Below the pieces are notes generated by a model. That model saw only the letters and a list, made by a program, of their open reading frames with translations. It made no database searches and was not told the DNA's origin. This document shows positions 10,184 through 60,826 of a stretch of DNA of 64,000 nucleotides, in pieces. Origin of the DNA: Sphingopyxis sp. (GTDB taxonomy: Bacteria; Pseudomonadota; Alphaproteobacteria; Sphingomonadales; Sphingomonadaceae); the NCBI RefSeq assembly GCF_036261875.1, contig NZ_DATAJZ010000020.1, forward strand, positions 14,299 through 78,298. Direction: 5' to 3'. The first letter of the stretch is position 1; each line of letters starts with the position of its first letter. Position numbers and translations under genes: made by a program.

Positions 10184-10203
10184 GTTTCTGCCTCTCCTTC
10201 ATC

Positions 10204-10286
10204 CCGTTCGTGTCGAGCGAAGTCGAGACACCCATCGGCCTTAGGCCTAGCCTGAGGGGCATCTCGACTTCGCTCGATGCGAACGG
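10204..10286. repeat. Family A palindromic element, copy 1 (right arm degenerate)
   Basis: Left arm CCGTTCGTGTCGAGCGAAGTCGAGACACCCATCGG is identical to the copies at 30051 and 37640. The right arm is partly diverged. It lies in the murC-murB spacer. Confidence 0.8.
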
Positions 10287-10301
10287 AAAAGGGGGGCGGT
10301 C

Positions 10302-19807: not shown

Positions 19808-20005
19808 CGCGCGGGAGAGCGCGGAGCAGGGCGACCTGCGCCGCCACCGAAGGAGCAACCGCCCCGGAAACTCTCAGGTCAACGGACCGCGCAGGCTGGA
19901 ACGGACACTCTGGAAAGCGTTCCGGCGAAGGTCGTCGGGACCACCGAAGGGGTAACCCTGCGTTCTCGCAGGGGAAAACTCTCAGGTTCCCGTGACAGAG
20001 GGGGC
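19808..20005 (+). promoter_or_regulatory. Tandem glycine riboswitch (two aptamers) upstream of gcvT
   Basis: Aptamer 1: GGGAGAG...CACCGAAGGAGCAA...CTCTCAGGTCAACGGAC. Aptamer 2: CTGGAAAG...CACCGAAGGGGTAA...CTCTCAGGTTCCCGTGACAG. It lies directly 5' of gcvT. Confidence 0.8.
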
Positions 20006-20061
20006 ATGGCGACAGGACGGCATCGGGCCGCGCCTTGCCATGTCAACCGCGGGAGACTGAC

Positions 20062-25731: not shown

Positions 25732-25759
25732 GATCATCCCGGCTTTCGCCGGAATGACG
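25732..25759. repeat. Family B single hairpin unit
   Basis: TCATCCCGGC-TTTC-GCCGGAATGA palindrome between the small membrane ORF and the DUF4281 gene. Confidence 0.6.
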
Positions 25760-28743: not shown

Positions 28744-29088
28744 TCAGAGAATCTCGCGCACCCGGTCCTGCGGGCGGCAATAGCGGACGCCCTTTTCGGT
28801 CTCGACGAAAGGGCGGTCGACATAGGCGGGATTGGCCGTCATCGCGGCGACGATCGCATCCTCGTCCGCGTCCGCCAGCCCGCGTTCCTCGGCGTCGGTG
28901 CCGCGCAGGCGGAGCGCCTCGCGCGCGGTCAGGCCGGCATCGCGGAAAAGCTGGCGCAGCTTGTCCGCCGTATAGGGGGTCTTCAGATATTCGACCACCT
29001 CGACCTCGACGCCGGGGGTCTCTTCGAGAATCGCCAGCGTCTTGCGCGAGGTGCCGCAGGCGGGGTTGTGCCAGATGACTGCCTTCAT
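28744..29088 (-). CDS. arsC: ArsC/Spx-family arsenate reductase-like protein
   Basis: 114 aa starting MKAVIWHNPACGTSRK (catalytic Cys context). YVDRPF motif. Confidence 0.75.
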   Translation of the reverse strand: MKAVIWHNPACGTSRKTLAILEETPGVEVEVVEYLKTPYTADKLRQLFRDAGLTAREALRLRGTDAEERGLADADEDAIVAAMTANPAYVDRPFVETEKGVRYCRPQDRVREIL

Positions 29089-30015: not shown

Positions 30016-30050
30016 CCTATATCGAGCGTTAAATCATCATCACCTCAATT

Positions 30051-30132
30051 CCGTTCGTGTCGAGCGAAGTCGAGACACCCATCGGTATAGCGCTATGCCG
30101 ATGGGTGTCTCGACTTCGCTCGACACGAACGG
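30051..30132. repeat. Family A palindromic element, copy 2 (perfect 35-bp arms)
   Basis: CCGTTCGTGTCGAGCGAAGTCGAGACACCCATCGG, then loop tatagcgctatg, then the exact reverse complement. Confidence 0.9.
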
Positions 30133-30198
30133 AACGATGGGTCAGATTAAGGGCTCGCCGCTATAGCGGCCCCCGCCTTCGCGGGGGCGACGGCTGTC

Positions 30199-37506: not shown

Positions 37507-37639
37507 CGAATCACACTCCCGCGAGATATTGATGAGCGGGCCATAGGGGCGGGTCGTTCGTCAGTCTGTCATCGCGCCGACAATCTCCTTTAGGAATATC
37601 GATACCGCATTCGAAGCGAGGATTTAAACAACCCCAATC

Positions 37640-37721
37640 CCGTTCGTGTCGAGCGAAGTCGAGACACCCATCGGCGTAGCGCAAGGCCGATGGGTGTCTC
37701 GACTTCGCTCGACACGAACGG
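37640..37721. repeat. Family A palindromic element, copy 3 (perfect arms)
   Basis: Arms are identical to copy 2 and the loop is cgtagcgcaagg. It creates the spurious N-terminal extension of track ORF 37646. Confidence 0.9.
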
Positions 37722-37774
37722 AAAGGCGAGGCAAATATGGGTTCCATCGCTCTGGGGTGGGGAGGGCGACGCAT

Positions 37775-47106: not shown

Positions 47107-47134
47107 ATGCCCACGATTGGATCTGAAGCAGATT

Positions 47135-47216
47135 CCGTTTGTGTCGAGCGAAGTCGAGACACCCATCAGTATGGCGCAAGGGCGATGGGTGTCTCGACTT
47201 CGCTCGACACGAACGG
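47135..47216. repeat. Family A palindromic element, copy 4
   Basis: CCGTTTGTGTCGAGCGAAGTCGAGACACCCATC..., then a loop, then ...GATGGGTGTCTCGACTTCGCTCGACACGAACGG. One mismatch in the left arm. Confidence 0.85.
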
Positions 47217-47238
47217 GAATTTAGGGCGGCTGCGTTCT

Positions 47239-50697: not shown

Positions 50698-51096
50698 ATG
50701 GCTGATTCCGACCATGGCGCGGGCGGGAGCGCGGACAGGGGCAAGGCGGCGAGCGCGATGCTCGCGATCGGCGAACTCGCCGATCGCATCGGCGTGCCGA
50801 CGCATGTCCTGCGCTATTGGGAAACGCGCTTTCCGCAGCTCCGTCCGCTCCAGCGGTCGGGGCGGCGGCGCTATTACCGCGCCGAGGATGTCGCGCTCGC
50901 CGAGCGCATCCACCATCTGCTGCATGTGAAGGGCTTCACGGTCGAAGGCGCACGCAAGGCCTTGTCGCAGCCCAATGGCGCGGCCTCGGCTGAGCCGGTG
51001 GCGCCTCCGGCTGCAACGCCGGTCGCCGCATCGCATGGGGTTTCGGTGGAGGCGCTGGTCGCGCTGCGCCAGCGGCTCGCGGCGGCATTGCGTTAA
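50698..51096 (+). CDS. MerR-family transcriptional regulator
   Basis: HTH IGELADRIGVPTHVLRYWE. The position downstream of ihfA is common in alphaproteobacteria. Confidence 0.75.
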   Translation: MADSDHGAGGSADRGKAASAMLAIGELADRIGVPTHVLRYWETRFPQLRPLQRSGRRRYYRAEDVALAERIHHLLHVKGFTVEGARKALSQPNGAASAEPVAPPAATPVAASHGVSVEALVALRQRLAAALR

Positions 51097-55133: not shown

Positions 55134-55252
55134 GCCGCGAAGCTAAGCCCGACATGGTAAATTTTTCGGTAATGACGATCTCGCAACCGGGACGTGCCCC
55201 TTAAGGCACTTTTGCCTTCGAATTGGCCGATCTTGCCGCTATGGGCGCAGCC

Positions 55253-56854
55253 ATGACTGACCTGCACCTTCATCCTTCGCTGCGCGCGCATGCGCAAACG
55301 TCCAAGGCCTGGCCGTTCGAGGAAGCGCGCAAGCTGGTCAAACGCTATCCCGACGGCAAGCCCGGCGGCGAGCCGGTGCTGTTCGAGACCGGCTATGGCC
55401 CCTCGGGCCTGCCGCACATCGGCACGTTCAACGAAGTGCTGCGCACGACGATGGTCCGCCGCGCCTATGAGGCGCTGACCGGCGGCGCCGCGACGCGCCT
55501 CGTTGCGTTCAGCGACGACATGGACGGGCTGCGCAAGGTTCCCGACAATGTCCCCAACCAGGCGATGCTGCGCGAACATCTCGGCAAGTCGCTCACCGCC
55601 ATCCCCGATCCGTTCGGCAAGTATGAGAGTTTCGCGCATCACAACAATGCGATGCTCCGCGAATTTCTCGACCGTTTCGGCTTCGAATATGAGTTTGTGA
55701 GTTCGACCGAGCGCTACAGGTCGGGCGCGTTCGACAATGCGCTCAGGAATGTCCTGCGCCACAATCAGGACATTCTCGACATCATGCTGCCGACGCTCCG
55801 CGCCGAGCGCGCCGCGACCTATTCGCCGATCCTGCCGGTCAGCCCGAATTCGGGCATCGTGCTCCAGGTGCCGGTGACCGTGGTCGATGCCGACGCCGGA
55901 CTCGTTTCGTTCGAGGACGAGGGCGAGACGATCACGCACAGCATCCTGTCGGGCGGCGCCAAGCTGCAATGGAAGGTCGACTGGGCGATGCGCTGGGTCG
56001 CGCTGGGCGTCGATTACGAGATGTACGGCAAGGACCTGACCGACAGCGGTATCCAGTCGGGCAAGATCGCCAAGGCGCTCGGCGGCCGCAAGCCCGAGGG
56101 GCTGATCTACGAGATGTTCCTCGACGAAAAGGGCGAGAAGATCTCGAAATCGAAGGGCAACGGCCTCAGCCTCGAACAATGGCTCGACTATGGCAGCGAG
56201 GAAAGCCTCGCCTTCTTCGCCTATCGCGAGCCCAAGGCGGCGAAGCAGCTTCACATTGGCGTGATTCCCAAGGCGGTCGACGAATATCTCCAGATGCGCG
56301 GCAACTATCCGGCGCAGGACGGCGACAAGAAGCTCGGCAACCCGGTGCACCACGTCCATGTCGCGCGCGGCGAGGATGTGCCCGCGGCCGAATTGCCGGT
56401 GACTTTCGGCCTGCTGCTCAACCTTGTCGGGGTGATGGGCGCCGATGCCTCGAAGGATCAGATCTGGCGCTACCTCGGCCAATATGTCGAGGGCGCGAAT
56501 GCGGACGCCTATCCCGAACTCGACCGGCTGATCGACAATGCGATGGCGTATAACCGCGATTTCGTCGCGCCGACCTTGCAGCGCCGCAAGCCGCAGGGCG
56601 GTGAGGGGGCGGCCCTGAAGGCGCTCGACGACAAGCTCGCGGCGTTGTCCGCCGACGCCTCGGCCGATGATATCCAGAACATCGTCTACGAGATCGGCAA
56701 GGACGAAGCCTATGGCTTCGAGAATCTGCGCGACTGGTTCAAGGCGCTCTACGAGACCCTGCTCGGGTCGAGCGCGGGGCCGCGCATGGGCAGCTTCATC
56801 GCGCTGTTCGGGATCGCCAACACGCGGCGGCTGATTGCCGAGGCTTTAGCGTAA
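55253..56854 (+). CDS. lysK: Class I lysine--tRNA ligase
   Basis: Motifs GYGPSGLPHIGT (HIGH-like) and KISKSKGNG (KMSKS). ATG 55253 within track ORF 55223..56854. Confidence 0.9.
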   Translation: MTDLHLHPSLRAHAQTSKAWPFEEARKLVKRYPDGKPGGEPVLFETGYGPSGLPHIGTFNEVLRTTMVRRAYEALTGGAATRLVAFSDDMDGLRKVPDNVPNQAMLREHLGKSLTAIPDPFGKYESFAHHNNAMLREFLDRFGFEYEFVSSTERYRSGAFDNALRNVLRHNQDILDIMLPTLRAERAATYSPILPVSPNSGIVLQVPVTVVDADAGLVSFEDEGETITHSILSGGAKLQWKVDWAMRWVALGVDYEMYGKDLTDSGIQSGKIAKALGGRKPEGLIYEMFLDEKGEKISKSKGNGLSLEQWLDYGSEESLAFFAYREPKAAKQLHIGVIPKAVDEYLQMRGNYPAQDGDKKLGNPVHHVHVARGEDVPAAELPVTFGLLLNLVGVMGADASKDQIWRYLGQYVEGANADAYPELDRLIDNAMAYNRDFVAPTLQRRKPQGGEGAALKALDDKLAALSADASADDIQNIVYEIGKDEAYGFENLRDWFKALYETLLGSSAGPRMGSFIALFGIANTRRLIAEALA

Positions 56855-56861
56855 AATGGAA

Positions 56862-56957
56862 CGTCATTGCGAGCGAAGTGAAGCAATCTCCAGCTATCGG
56901 TTTCGCGCAAGGCTGATGGCTGGAGATTGCGTCGTCGCTACGCTCCTCGCAATGACG
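56862..56957. repeat. Family C palindromic element, copy 2
   Basis: CGTCATTGCGAGCGAAGTGAAGCAATCTCCAGC...GCTGGAGATTGCGTCGTCGCTACGCTCCTCGCAATGACG. Confidence 0.8.
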
Positions 56958-56968
56958 AAAGAGGGCTT

Positions 56969-57451
56969 ATGATCGACATCTTCACCACCGGCGGCACGAT
57001 CGACAAAGTCTATTTCGACGCGCTCAGCGAGTTCCAGATCGGCCCCGCGGCGATCCCCGACATGCTGCGCGAGAATAATGTCCACGTCCCGCACCGCGTC
57101 ACGCAGCTCATGCGCAAGGACAGCCTCGAACTGACCGACGCCGACCGCGAGGCGATCCGCGCCGCGGTCGCCGCGAGCGATGCCGACCGCATCCTCGTCA
57201 CCCACGGCACCGACACGATGGTCGTCACCGGGCGCGTGCTCGCGGGGATCGCGGGCAAGACGATCGTGCTCACCGGCGCGATGCAGCCGGCGTCGGTGCG
57301 CGCGAGCGACGCCGAGTTCAATGTCGGCTTCGCGCTCGCCGCGGTGCAGACGCTGCCGCCCGGCGTCTATGTCGCGATGAACGGGATGATCTTCGACCCC
57401 GCAACGACGGTGAAGGACCGCGCCGCCGGGCGCTTCCGCGCCGGGACCTGA
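56969..57451 (+). CDS. Stand-alone asparaginase/glutaminase N-domain protein
   Basis: 160 aa with the TTGGTIDK threonine motif and HGTDTM. Confidence 0.65.
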   Translation: MIDIFTTGGTIDKVYFDALSEFQIGPAAIPDMLRENNVHVPHRVTQLMRKDSLELTDADREAIRAAVAASDADRILVTHGTDTMVVTGRVLAGIAGKTIVLTGAMQPASVRASDAEFNVGFALAAVQTLPPGVYVAMNGMIFDPATTVKDRAAGRFRAGT

Positions 57452-57460
57452 CACGCCGAT

Positions 57461-57559
57461 TCCCCGAGCGAAGCCGAGGGGCCATGCCGAGCGCAGTCGA
57501 GGCGGCGGCGATGCGGGTTCTCGCTCCGCTCGAACGGGCCCCTCGGCTTCGCTCGGGGA
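57461..57559. repeat. Family F palindromic element upstream of the bufferin-like operon
   Basis: TCCCCGAGCGAAGCCGAGGGGCC, about 53 nt, then GGCCCCTCGGCTTCGCTCGGGGA, giving perfect 23-nt arms. Confidence 0.7.
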
Positions 57560-57694
57560 ACCGGAGAAGGGCGAGTTAAATTGCTTTCGCCTGTGATCGA
57601 GATCATGCGACAAGGCCGCCGGGTCGTGTGACAAGAACAGCGGGCGACGAGTCGCCCCACTTCTATCGGGACAACCAAGGGAAGGGACGATCAC

Positions 57695-58006
57695 ATGAAC
57701 AGCCACAAACTCGCCAGTCTCATCGCCGCGTCGGCGACCGCGGTCGCGCTTTCGGGCGCCGCGCTCGCCGCCGATCCGGCGCCGCACGCCAAGCGCGTCG
57801 GCGCGAGCGACACGGTCAAATGCTATGGCGTCAACAGTTGCAAGGGCACCTCGGACTGCAAGACCGAGGCGAGCTCGTGCAGCGGCGACGCCGGATGCAG
57901 CACCGCAGGCAATAGCTGCGCGGGCGCGAACAGCTGCAAGGGCAAGGGCTTCAAGAAGCTCGCCGCGGGTAAATGCCTGACCGACGGCGGCAAGATCGCG
58001 GTCTGA
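57695..58006 (+). CDS. bufA: Bufferin-type RiPP precursor (DUF2282/BufA-like), Sec signal peptide, 8 Cys
   Basis: Signal peptide ending ALA|AD. The core runs [53 protein letters not shown]. It lies directly upstream of the DUF692 and DUF2063 genes. Confidence 0.7.
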
Positions 58007-58017
58007 CGACAACGGAC

Positions 58018-58039
58018 GGGTCCGGCCGGCGCCGGACCC
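58018..58039 (+). promoter_or_regulatory. GC hairpin between the precursor and the MNIO gene
   Basis: GGGTCCGGC-CGGC-GCCGGACCC, 12 nt after the precursor stop, with no U-tract. Confidence 0.4.
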
Positions 58040-58061
58040 GAACCGCCGACGGAGAGCGAGC

Positions 58062-58913
58062 GTGCGCGCAGAGGATTGCCGGACAGTGCCGTCGCCGGGC
58101 TTCGGCCTTGGCCTGCGCCCCGATCATTATCCCGATTTTCTTGAGCGACCGCAGCCGGTCGAATGGCTGGAGATCATCTCCGAAAATTACATGGTGCCGG
58201 GCGGACGCCCGCTCGCCATGCTCGACCGCATCCGCGCCGATTATCCGATGGTGATGCACGGCGTGTCGCTGTCGATCGGTTCCGACGAGCCGTTCGACCG
58301 GGATTATCTGGCCGACCTCAAGGCGCTGGCCGAGCGGGTCGAGCCGCTGTGGATTTCGGACCATCTCTGCTGGACCGGGATCGACGCGCACAACAGCCAC
58401 GACCTGCTGCCGCTCCCCTATGACGCGCCGGCGCTGCGATGCGTCGTCGACAATATCGGCCGCGTGCAGGATATTCTCGGCCGCCGCATCCTGATCGAGA
58501 ATCCGTCGAGCTATGTCACCTTTCGCTCGTCGGATCGCAGCGAGTGGGATTTTCTCGCCGACATGGCCGAACGCGCCGACTGCCTGCTGCTGCTCGACGT
58601 CAACAATATTTACGTCAGCGCGCGCAATCACGGCTTCGACCCGCTCGATTATCTCGCCGGCCTGCCCGCGCACCGCATCCAGCAGATCCACCTCGCCGGC
58701 CACAGCGACATGGGCGACTATGTCATCGACACCCACGACGCCGACGTCTGCGATGCGGTGTGGGACCTTTATGCGCGGGCGATCAATATGTTCGGCCCCG
58801 TGGCGACGATGATCGAGCGCGACGACGCCATTCCACCGCTCGCCGACGTGATCGCCGAACTCGACCGCGCGCGGACGGTCGCCGCGCGGGTGCTGGAGGG
58901 CGCCGATGCCTGA
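58062..58913 (+). CDS. bufB: DUF692 / MNIO-family (multinuclear non-heme iron oxidase) RiPP maturase
   Basis: GGAGAG precedes GTG 58062. Motifs [50 protein letters not shown] and DTHD. Confidence 0.8.
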
Positions 58914-59679
58914 GCCGCTGCGCGAGGTTCAGCGGCGCTTTCTCGCGGCGATCATCGAGGACGATGCGGGCGCCGGGGCGCTGATCGTCAACGACGCGCG
59001 CGTTGGCGCGGCGAAGCGGCTTGCCATCTATCGCAACAATTACCGCGCCAGCCTGACCGGCGTGCTCGCCGACCATCACGAGCGGCTGCACGCCTGGCTC
59101 GGCGACGAGCAGTTCGACACGGTCGCGGGCGCCTATGTCGCCGCGCACCCCTCGACGACGCGCAACCTCCGCCATTATGGCGGCGGTTTCGCGGCCTTCC
59201 TGGCCGAGCATTTCCCGGACGACGGCGAACTCGCCGAGCTGGCGCGGCTCGACTGGGCGCTGCGCGCGGCGTTCGACGCGCCCGATGGTCCGGCGCTCGA
59301 TGCCGTGCGCGTGACCGCGCTGGGCGAGACGTGGCTCGAGCAGCCGCTGAGGCTCCATCCGTCCGCGAGTCTGCTCTCGGCGCGCTTCAACGTCGCGGCG
59401 CTATGGCGCGCGCTCGACGCCGGGGAAGAGCCGCCCGAACCGGTCGAGCTCACGGCGCCGGTCGTGCTGCTCGTCTGGCGGAACGGCCTGCAACCGCAAT
59501 TCCGCAGCCTGTCCGCAGCCGAAGCCGCGGCGCTGGCGCGCCTCGAAGCGGGCGCGACCTTCACCGGGCTCAGCGCCCATGTCATCGAAGCGGTGGGGGA
59601 AGCCGTCGCGATGGAGGAACTCGCCGGCTGGCTCGGCCAATGGCTCGCTGATGGGGTGCTGGTGCTTGGGTTAGACTGA
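58906..59679 (+). CDS. bufC: DUF2063 protein (BufC-like MNIO partner)
   Basis: 8-nt overlap with buf[14 protein letters not shown] and [12 protein letters not shown] patterns. Confidence 0.7.
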
Positions 59680-59693
59680 AACCCTGCCTTATC

Positions 59694-59773
59694 TCGTCAT
59701 CCCGGCGAAGGCCGGGATCTCACCGTCTCGACCTGGCGCACCGGCGGGATCCCGGCCTTCGCCGGGATGACGA
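59694..59773. repeat. Family B double-hairpin element
   Basis: CTCGTCATCCCGGCGAAGGCCGGGATC, a spacer, then GGGATCCCGGCCTTCGCCGGGATGACG. Confidence 0.85.
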
Positions 59774-59794: not shown

Positions 59795-60826
59795 CTAACC
59801 CTTCGCCGTCACCTGCCGCAACACCGCGCGGTAATGCGGCGCGATCGTCATCGCCTCATGCTGACCCTGCCGGCCGAGCATCGCGTGGACCGCGGGCAGG
59901 CGATAGCAGGGGACGCCCATGAACAGATGATGCTCGGCGTGATAATTCACCCAATAGGGCGCGACCGTCGCCCGCGCGATCCAGCCCGCGTGCGTCGTGC
60001 GCGCATGGGTGAAGGGATCCTCGCTTCCGGTCGTGGTGCACGCATGTTCGGCGATGTTGCGGATGCGGAGGTATAGCTGAAAGGTGGTCGCGAGCGCGGC
60101 GATCCACAGCAGCCAGGGCGTCCAGCCATAGAGCAGCAGCGACGCCGCGAGCAGCACCGCCTGCACCAGCAGAAAGCGCCCGACCGCGCGGGTCACCGCC
60201 ATCGCGCCCGCGACGTCGACCGTCGGTGACGTCACGCCGTCATCCGACTGCTTGTTGAAGGGCGTGCCCGCCTTGGTGCTCGCCCCCCTCTTGTCGCCCC
60301 GCTCGCCGCGCAGCATCGCCTGCAGACCTTTGAAGGCATAGCCGAACTGCGCCATGCGCTGCTTGAAGAAGGTCTGTCCGGTCAGGTCGCGCAATATCTT
60401 GCGCCCCAGGCTGGCGCGCGTGGTCGGGAAGGGTTTCGACAGCGACAGGTCGGGGTCTTCGGGCTGCTGCGTATATTTATGATGCTGCAGATGATAGGTG
60501 CGATAGGCGATCAGGTCCGATCCGGCGGCCGATCCGGTCAGCCATTGGCCGAGGAAATTATTCACTTTTCTGTTGGGGTGCAGCAGGCCGTGCGCAGCCT
60601 CGTGCATCAGGATCGCCAGGCCGAGCTGACGCCCGCCGACGATGATAATCGCGAGCAGCCAGGCGAGCGGATGACCGCTCCACGCCGCGAGGCCCACCGC
60701 CGCGATGCTGACGATCCAGGCATGGGCGACCAGCCAGACACCGCGCCAGCGCGAGGGGGCAGTGATCGCGGCCCATTCGGTGCGATCGAAGAAGCGGTTG
60801 GGCGGCAGAAGGCGGACAGCGGACAT
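59795..60826 (-). CDS. Membrane fatty acid desaturase family protein
   Basis: Histidine boxes HEAAHG, HLQHHKY and HAEHHLF. Confidence 0.8.
   Translation of the reverse strand: MSAVRLLPPNRFFDRTEWAAITAPSRWRGVWLVAHAWIVSIAAVGLAAWSGHPLAWLLAIIIVGGRQLGLAILMHEAAHGLLHPNRKVNNFLGQWLTGSAAGSDLIAYRTYHLQHHKYTQQPEDPDLSLSKPFPTTRASLGRKILRDLTGQTFFKQRMAQFGYAFKGLQAMLRGERGDKRGASTKAGTPFNKQSDDGVTSPTVDVAGAMAVTRAVGRFLLVQAVLLAASLLLYGWTPWLLWIAALATTFQLYLRIRNIAEHACTTTGSEDPFTHARTTHAGWIARATVAPYWVNYHAEHHLFMGVPCYRLPAVHAMLGRQGQHEAMTIAPHYRAVLRQVTAKG

Follow-up and report, generated by a model that had tools for sequence, protein, structure and literature searches.

A probable Buf2-type bufferin operon with an eight-cysteine precursor in a Sphingopyxis-like sphingomonad

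Gene content and layout of the operon

The stretch analysed here, a window of 64,000 nucleotides from contig NZ_DATAJZ010000020.1 of a Sphingopyxis sp. assembly, carries three adjacent genes on its + strand that together resemble the biosynthetic operons of bufferins, cysteine-rich exported peptides matured by an MNIO enzyme and a DUF2063 partner. The first, bufA (57695-58006, +), encodes a Buf2-type bufferin precursor of 103 residues with eight cysteines; the second, bufB (58062-58913, +), an MNIO (DUF692) bufferin maturase of 283 residues with a GTG start after a GGAGAG Shine-Dalgarno sequence; and the third, bufC (58906-59679, +), a DUF2063 partner protein (PME type 1) of 257 residues with a putative RRE-like C-terminal domain. 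The order precursor, MNIO, DUF2063 is identical in relatives. A gap of 55 nt separates the first two genes and one of -8 nt the last two, where the bufC ATG and the bufB TGA overlap (ATGCCTGA), and as read from this overlap bufC is translationally coupled to bufB. An earlier note on this DNA had placed the three open reading frames (ORFs) and their 8-nt overlap at the same positions, in agreement with our ORF positions and sequence, and its assignment to the bufferins, based on a Cys-rich precursor, an MNIO and a DUF2063 protein, holds and can be narrowed to the Buf2 (BufA2) type. The profile searches that it had proposed gave matches above cut-off for PF05114, PF09836 and the BufA2 and BufB models. 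By analogy with characterized systems, the locus is very probably a canonical operon for the biosynthesis of a Buf2-type bufferin in a Sphingopyxis-like sphingomonad. It is a further example of a known operon type, and its peculiarities are small variations.

BufB matches the MNIO family PF05114 with an E value of 8e-109 and passes the NCBIfam model for BufB (NF050167; 384.6 bits against a cut-off of 310), and its matches to other MNIO models stay below their cut-offs (HvfB, 251 against 360; MbnB, 54 against 325; ChrH, 45 against 600), that to ApyH likewise falling far short. It aligns to solved MNIO structures, best to 3BWW (E=5e-42), then to TglH (8HCI) and MbnB (7FC0/7DZ9). Ten residues (H66, H101, E146, D179, N182, H210, D223, H225, E252 and D254) are each at least 97% conserved among 80 homologues, and nine of these His, Glu, Asp and Asn positions, H66 to E252, are spaced like the iron ligands of MbnB, which we presume them to match by spacing rather than by structural superposition. 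The catalytic-base Asp is followed by a second Asp (ERD254-D255), present in 76 of the 80 homologues, and 3BWW reads ERDF at this position. An Asp at the corresponding residue, BufB2-D251, marks Cys-Lys (Buf2-type) enzymes and a Phe those of the EGKCG type (PMC13097082). As far as the sequence can tell, the ERDD of BufB is a signature of Cys-Lys-type specificity.

BufC belongs to DUF2063 (PF09836, E=6e-25, 87.7 bits against a cut-off of 27.2), and its match to NGO1945_C (PF22106) is weak and under the cut-off (E=4.5e-4, 21 bits against 27). A single-sequence search of the PDB gave no match for BufC; only a profile built from 32 BufC sequences reached NGO1945 (3DEE), the reference DUF2063/RRE partner protein, as its best PDB match, covering both domains (E=2.5e-4), with the C-terminal stretch 179-249 placed weakly on residues 153-226. 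In one metagenome contig (L090:2007-2777) bufC is split into ORFs of 57 and 169 residues, reflecting either a frameshifted, pseudogenised gene or a sequencing error.

The earlier note had presented the operon as an unusual minimal variant lacking both DoxX and a local regulator. The absences themselves hold within the window. A jackhmmer search over all ORFs of the 64 kb, seeded with a Pfam-verified DoxX from the comparison set (L025:14021-14533) that served as positive control, found no DoxX, and the small membrane proteins of the window comprise, in Pfam, an ABA4-like protein, a MAPEG protein and one protein without a match. No ECF sigma or NrsF genes and no second bufferin locus occur in the window. 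A MerR gene (50698-51096) and an ArsC-family gene (28744-29088) were considered as metal regulators and rejected, the first being 7 kb and the second 29 kb distant, both among housekeeping genes and without an operon link.

The claimed departure from a canonical system fails, however, because the four-gene picture taken as canonical is the architecture of Buf1, against which a Buf2 cluster had been set. The buf2 operon of Caulobacter (CCNA_02999-03001) is itself a three-gene ABC cluster that encodes BufB and BufC homologues without a bufD1-like gene, and DoxX is dispensable both for modification and for the copper phenotype (PMC11626156). In our comparison set, made up of the best 80 reference-genome loci for BufB, 71 are without DoxX; it occurs near bufB in nine, and in three of these it is part of an adjacent Buf1-type cluster. 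These 80 loci share no conserved fourth gene after bufC, the largest family there, a pyridoxal-phosphate enzyme, being found in five. Both Caulobacter buf operons are under SigF, via GTAACC-N16-CGAA promoters, and sigF adjoins buf1, not buf2 (PMC3511200); a genomic survey likewise found sigma/anti-sigma genes in Buf1 and not in Buf2 clusters (PMC12452194). A Buf2 cluster thus normally has neither DoxX nor a neighbouring regulator, and as the three-gene layout is the published norm of this subtype, the locus is not to be ranked as a new variant. The main value of this analysis is corrective.

We also observed several other arrangements. In two Cellvibrionaceae Buf2 loci DoxX lies between bufB and bufC, giving the order A-B-DoxX-C (L008:10809-11303 and L044:10850-11308), and in L069, L073, L050 and L031 it is found upstream of bufA on the other strand. 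Three further loci (L084:4713-7857, L085 and L086) have, directly upstream of their buf genes, a divergently oriented pair of ECF sigma and NrsF genes. Their precursor, P0037, has eight cysteines and a lipoprotein-type signal peptide and belongs to the distant lineage described below. The presence of the sigma/NrsF pair beside a three-gene ABC Buf2 cluster contrasts with the published survey (PMC12452194).

The eight-cysteine precursor and its predicted maturation

BufA passes the NCBIfam equivalog model for BufA2 (NF050166; 81.6 bits against a cut-off of 60), the match being made in two stretches split by an insertion. It has no match in Pfam to DUF2282 (PF10048), and a single-sequence PDB search found none either. 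A match to DUF7640 (PF24646), a model that possibly includes related exported peptides rich in Cys, stays under the cut-off (21.8 bits against 28.1). By inspection, residues 1-25 form a predicted Sec signal peptide, with an n-region MNSHK, a hydrophobic stretch at 6-25 and cleavage at ALA|ADP, and this segment aligns with the signal peptides of homologues. The remaining core of 78 residues holds all eight cysteines (C43, C49, C55, C62, C68, C75, C81 and C94). An AlphaFold model of low confidence (predicted local distance difference test, pLDDT, 58) agrees with the published bufferin topology (PMC11626156): C43 falls in the first strand, at residues 40-44, and C94 in a short helix at 91-96, with a further strand at 86-90.

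Buf2 precursors (BufA2, or Buf_6/12Cys) were recognized by the spacing C-x5-C-x5-C-x6-C-x5-C-x12-C, with six cysteines or a duplication to twelve, and have been described with six (90%) or twelve (PMC12452194). In an alignment of 37 sequences the six canonical cysteines, corresponding to C43, C49, C55, C75, C81 and C94 of BufA, are invariant. The eight-cysteine forms in this alignment carry an insertion of 12-13 residues between the third and fourth canonical cysteines that brings two extra cysteines; in BufA it comprises 13 residues, E58-T70 (57866-57904, +), and adds C62 and C68. The total of eight thereby departs from the published six or twelve. A second, distant eight-cysteine lineage (P0018, P0020, P0023 and P0037) has its insertion at the identical site. 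The form was found in 16 of 103 word-indexed homologues, six more having eight cysteines plus a lipobox cysteine, and an exhaustive search gave, among the best 150 representatives, 108 precursors with six cysteines, 13 with eight, five 6+6 duplications, three with ten and a few with seven or nine. Judged from these sequences, the eight-cysteine Buf2 subtype is recurrent and not rare, but little described.

Ten-cysteine Buf2 precursors with lipobox signal peptides were seen in Methylophilaceae/Methylotenera (L028:6766-7200, L032:9413-9850, L052:9510-9905 and L064:1-282), in which a central CK-x4-N-x-C unit has apparently been expanded twice. Together with the forms carrying seven, eight and nine cysteines, they indicate a stepwise repeat expansion of the core. 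In three six-cysteine precursors on short ENA contigs (P0013, P0014 and P0015), the signal peptide and the N-terminal core are identical with those encoded by the Sphingopyxis eight-cysteine genes, and the C-terminal half is of the six-cysteine type. They may derive from recombination between tandem paralogues or represent chimeric metagenome assemblies.

In Buf2 of Caulobacter the outer pair of cysteines forms a disulfide and the four central cysteines lose 4 Da each (PMC11626156). By this analogy a C43-C94 disulfide is expected in BufA, and up to six central cysteines would be modifiable. Only C49, C55 and C81 are followed by Lys, for which contact with BufB2-D251 has been proposed (PMC13097082), leaving three of the six central cysteines without it, so that the number of modified residues is not predictable; three to six thiooxazoles in the core appear possible. 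Following homology with Caulobacter Buf1 and Buf2, the RRE-like domain of BufC would bind the BufA precursor in the cytoplasm and present it to the multi-iron oxidase BufB, which would convert central cysteines to 5-thiooxazoles at a cost of 4 Da each. The modified peptide would then leave via Sec with removal of its 25-residue signal peptide, form the C43-C94 disulfide and, as a periplasmic product, chelate copper.

Upstream DNA, repeats and regulation

The locus lies in core chromosome, as the window also contains the dcw cluster, glycine-cleavage genes, accBC and plsX. The closest BufB proteins are from Sphingopyxis (strain KK2, 89% identity; S. soli, 87%; S. terrae, 87%), and a conserved neighbourhood of helicase, PilZ, class-I lysS, asparaginase-like gene, buf genes, convergent desaturase and GGDEF-EAL gene is shared by Sphingopyxis genomes and several metagenome contigs. 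Within this setting three states of the precursor genes were found: a six-cysteine bufA alone (S. terrae and one metagenome-assembled genome, MAG); a six-cysteine gene of 94 residues followed by the eight-cysteine gene (S. soli, KK2 and every metagenomic eight-cysteine context long enough to judge); and the eight-cysteine gene alone, as in the window and in the metagenome contig QFCS01000402.1 (L107). In two relatives (L081:1948-3083 and L087:143-1189) genes of the GerE/LuxR type and of DUF4199 stand between PilZ and lysS, where the window (55134-55222) has nothing.

A perfect SigF-type motif, GTAACC-N15-CGAA, stands just upstream of the six-cysteine gene in four out of four reference relatives (L001-L004), and with spacers of N15 or N16 a perfect motif occurs in all six other sphingomonad loci (L001-L004, L069 and L073). 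Of the 80 loci, 73 could be scanned; eight of them, the six sphingomonad loci included, carry a perfect motif upstream of the precursor, and these eight sites are among only 14 perfect matches in 2.45 Mb. Such a promoter is a feature of some Buf2 members and does not define them. In the window, the region 57400-57700 contains no GTAACC-N15-18-CGAA motif even when two mismatches are allowed. The sole + strand near-match beside a gene start in the window (GTAACC-N15-GGAA at 19952-19976, one mismatch), about 60 nt upstream of a gcvT-like gene at 20035, is probably a chance match. By comparison with the relatives' sequences, both the SigF-type promoter and the upstream six-cysteine paralogue have been lost in this lineage. 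The earlier note's remark that the regulation of the operon was not understood gains some substance from this loss, although it had been made for a different reason.

In the place where relatives have the promoter, the six-cysteine gene and its hairpin, directly after the 3' end of the asparaginase-like gene, the window has the palindrome I1 (57456-57564, no strand assigned), a dispersed element of about 110 bp resembling REP/MITE (repetitive extragenic palindromic/miniature inverted-repeat transposable element) repeats, with 41-nt arms and a folding energy of -85.7 kcal/mol (z=-6.3). The assembly QFCS01 contains at least nine copies of I1 at 86-92% identity, with full-length ones on at least eight other contigs. 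The contig QFCS01000402.1 has the same locus at 97.9% identity and the same arrangement of I1 and a lone eight-cysteine gene; as this arrangement is present in two independent assemblies, it is real. Between the two, bufA, the bufA-bufB spacer and the upstream region, with a single substitution over 243 nt, are essentially identical, and bufB and bufC together show 29 synonymous and 18 non-synonymous codon changes and no stop codons. Intact ORFs and an excess of synonymous changes argue that the genes are still maintained. Divergence across 57695-59666 and its surroundings is mosaic, at 0% from I1 to the spacer, 2.6% in bufB, 4.2% in bufC and 5.6% in the upstream lysS, as would be expected if the I1-bufA segment had recently recombined or swept.

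Between I1 and bufA lies a conserved non-coding block (57586-57631, +) that emerged from an alignment of 11 loci as a candidate promoter or operator, conserved far above its flanks. It comprises an invariant run TTCGCCTGTGAyCsAGATCATG (57586-57607), which contains the dyad TGTGA-N6-TCATG (57592-57607), and a second invariant run GGGTCGTGTGA (57621-57631). The sole variation in the first run falls within the dyad spacer, which suggests a protein-binding site. The dyad resembles CRP/FNR sites imperfectly, with eight of ten CRP consensus positions, and we treat this as a lead only. The block precedes every eight-cysteine gene and is absent from loci with a six-cysteine gene only. No match to sigma-70-like, SigF or Rfam models was found in it upstream of bufA. 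It would be either a promoter/operator belonging to the eight-cysteine gene itself or an element between the cistrons of the tandem operon. No other conserved DNA remains in the window as a regulatory candidate, and with the relatives' SigF-type promoter lost, transcription most likely starts within the block. Downstream of it follow a 5'-leader hairpin, GGGCGAC-GAG-TCGCCC (57642-57657, +), whose stem is kept with covarying changes in relatives, and the bufA Shine-Dalgarno region AAGGGAAGGGA (57677-57687, +), read from the sequence and conserved in the relatives' alignment. RNA pairings predicted inside the block are not conserved. Long-range pairings in the 5' leader, of UGUGAUCG with CGAUCACA and of UCAUGCGAC with GUCGUGUGA, were rejected since they are not conserved in relatives.

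These observations bear on how the operon may now be controlled. It is possible, though we lean against it, that the operon has been rewired and is transcribed from the 57586-57631 block under another regulator, for instance one of the Crp/Fnr family acting at TGTGA-N6-TCATG, in response to a signal other than that of SigF. The near invariance of the block in 11 loci while its flanks drift, with variation confined to the dyad spacer, its strict association with eight-cysteine genes and its absence from six-cysteine-only loci speak for such a change, as do its intact survival at the edge of the deletion/insertion, its identity in the second genome and the intactness of the downstream genes. However, no promoter consensus was detected within the block, the dyad is imperfect against the CRP consensus, conservation among 11 sequences of fairly close relationship is by itself weak evidence, and the block could instead serve the tandem operon as an intercistronic RNA element. 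A further-reaching combination, which we put forward tentatively and consider rather unlikely as a whole, would have the mobile repeat removing both the SigF promoter and the six-cysteine paralogue, with the TGTGA-N6-TCATG/GGGTCGTGTGA block taking over, possibly with a redox or oxygen input of the Crp/Fnr type. The sole product would then be an eight-cysteine bufferin with at most six thiooxazoles and a metal stoichiometry or selectivity unlike that of six-cysteine Buf2.

Loss of the SigF promoter could instead have left bufABC untranscribed, a silent remnant decaying toward pseudogenes. The SigF-type motif present in all six other sphingomonad loci is indeed missing here and replaced by a mobile palindromic repeat, and no alternative promoter consensus was found. 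Decay is nevertheless improbable: the two genomes diverge by 2-4% in bufB and bufC, yet both keep all three ORFs intact, and synonymous changes outnumber non-synonymous ones. BufB has all its catalytic residues, the genes still have their Shine-Dalgarno sequences and translational coupling, and GC content at third codon positions is typical of expressed genes. That the product belongs to another MNIO class, of the oxazolin/HvfA, methanobactin or chryseobasin type, is the least credible alternative by a wide measure: BufB does show sub-threshold matches to HvfB, ApyH, MbnB and ChrH, all MNIO paralogues, but these scores lie far under the cut-offs whereas BufB passes its own model, the precursor is without EGKCG repeats, the enzyme reads ERDD and not the ERDF of the Lys-Cys type, and the partner is DUF2063 and not MbnC.

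Several points weigh against the assignment of the locus as a canonical Buf2-type operon. Half of the central cysteines are not followed by the Lys proposed as a recognition feature for Buf2-type enzymes. BufC has no NCBIfam match above threshold, the sole match being to HvfC at 56 bits against a cut-off of 142. No recognisable promoter of the SigF or sigma-70 consensus lies upstream of bufA, and the very stable I1 hairpin stands between the upstream gene and the operon, which makes expression in this lineage uncertain. Modification, bound metal and expression are, moreover, extrapolated from homologues.

Further structured elements flank the genes. A hairpin follows the bufA stop codon (58017-58040, +; RNA fold), between bufA and bufB, and in a consensus of four eight-cysteine loci 13 pairs are formed, four of them with compensatory changes, position and shape being kept. 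Hairpins of unrelated sequence occupy the equivalent place after the six-cysteine genes of L003 and L004. The element probably acts as an attenuator or as an mRNA-stabilising stem that adjusts the level of precursor transcript relative to that of the enzymes. Beyond bufC lies the palindrome I2 (59694-59773, no strand assigned), called family B in the earlier note, with 32-nt arms of 94% complementarity and a folding energy of -78.8 kcal/mol (z=-9.75). From its position between the convergent bufC and a fatty-acid desaturase family gene (59795-60826), I2 is probably a bidirectional transcription stop. Copies of its family occur in the window at 25735 and 36089 and also in L096, L102 and L108; Rfam 'miRNA' matches on I2 were dismissed as hairpin artefacts far under the gathering scores. 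The convergent desaturase, the repeat after bufC and the palindrome before bufA were thus all as the earlier note had described. Another dispersed repeat family, the third, measures about 90-110 bp and matches in both orientations. One copy lies between lysS and the asparaginase-like gene (56854-56968), and the window has at least four others (10202-10290, 30041-30151, 37631-37724 and 47133-47225).

Two modest leads remain. Nature offers a series of precursors with six, eight and ten cysteines, and Sphingopyxis strains with the six-cysteine gene alone, with both or with the eight-cysteine gene alone. Together these could show how many thiooxazoles are installed per BufBC pair and whether the Cys-Lys context is required, and the pair of strains with and without a SigF-type promoter is a natural experiment on operon regulation.

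Comparison with known systems

Among known systems, the oxazolin (HvfABC) and fontiphorin (EGKCG-repeat captophorins) pathways (PMC11252979, PMC13097082) share with the window the combination of an MNIO, a DUF2063 protein with an RRE, putative in the window, and a Cys-rich peptide with a Sec signal, predicted in the window, and by analogy the likeness may extend to 5-thiooxazole chemistry and copper binding. Their precursors, however, have Lys-Cys EGKCG repeats and their enzymes a Phe after the catalytic Asp where the window has Asp, and the window proteins do not pass the HvfB and HvfC models. The Caulobacter buf1ABCD and gig-type DUF2282 clusters share the enzymology of MNIO and DUF2063 as well as the proposed periplasmic copper buffering. 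Buf1 precursors are DUF2282 proteins with four cysteines, and their clusters as a rule contain DoxX (bufD) and in many cases sigF/nrsF; the window, having no DUF2282 match and no DoxX, falls outside this four-gene type.

The buf2ABC operon of Caulobacter vibrioides (CCNA_03001-02999, PMC11626156) has the same three genes in the same order, with a BufA2-type precursor bearing a Sec signal, predicted in the case of the window, an MNIO and a DUF2063 protein. It likewise lacks DoxX and a sigma/anti-sigma pair next to it, and the six canonical cysteines are common to both. The window differs from it in a core with eight rather than six cysteines, owing to the 13-residue insertion, in the lack of a following Lys at half of its central cysteines and in the lack of a detectable SigF-type promoter upstream. 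The tandem Sphingopyxis loci with a six- and an eight-cysteine gene (S. soli L002, KK2 L001, MAG L081 and others) occupy the same chromosomal position, encode BufB proteins 85-89% identical to that of the window and have the same eight-cysteine gene, upstream block and post-precursor hairpin. These loci carry GTAACC-N15-CGAA and the six-cysteine bufA of 94 residues, whereas the window and QFCS01000402.1 have the 110-bp palindromic repeat instead.

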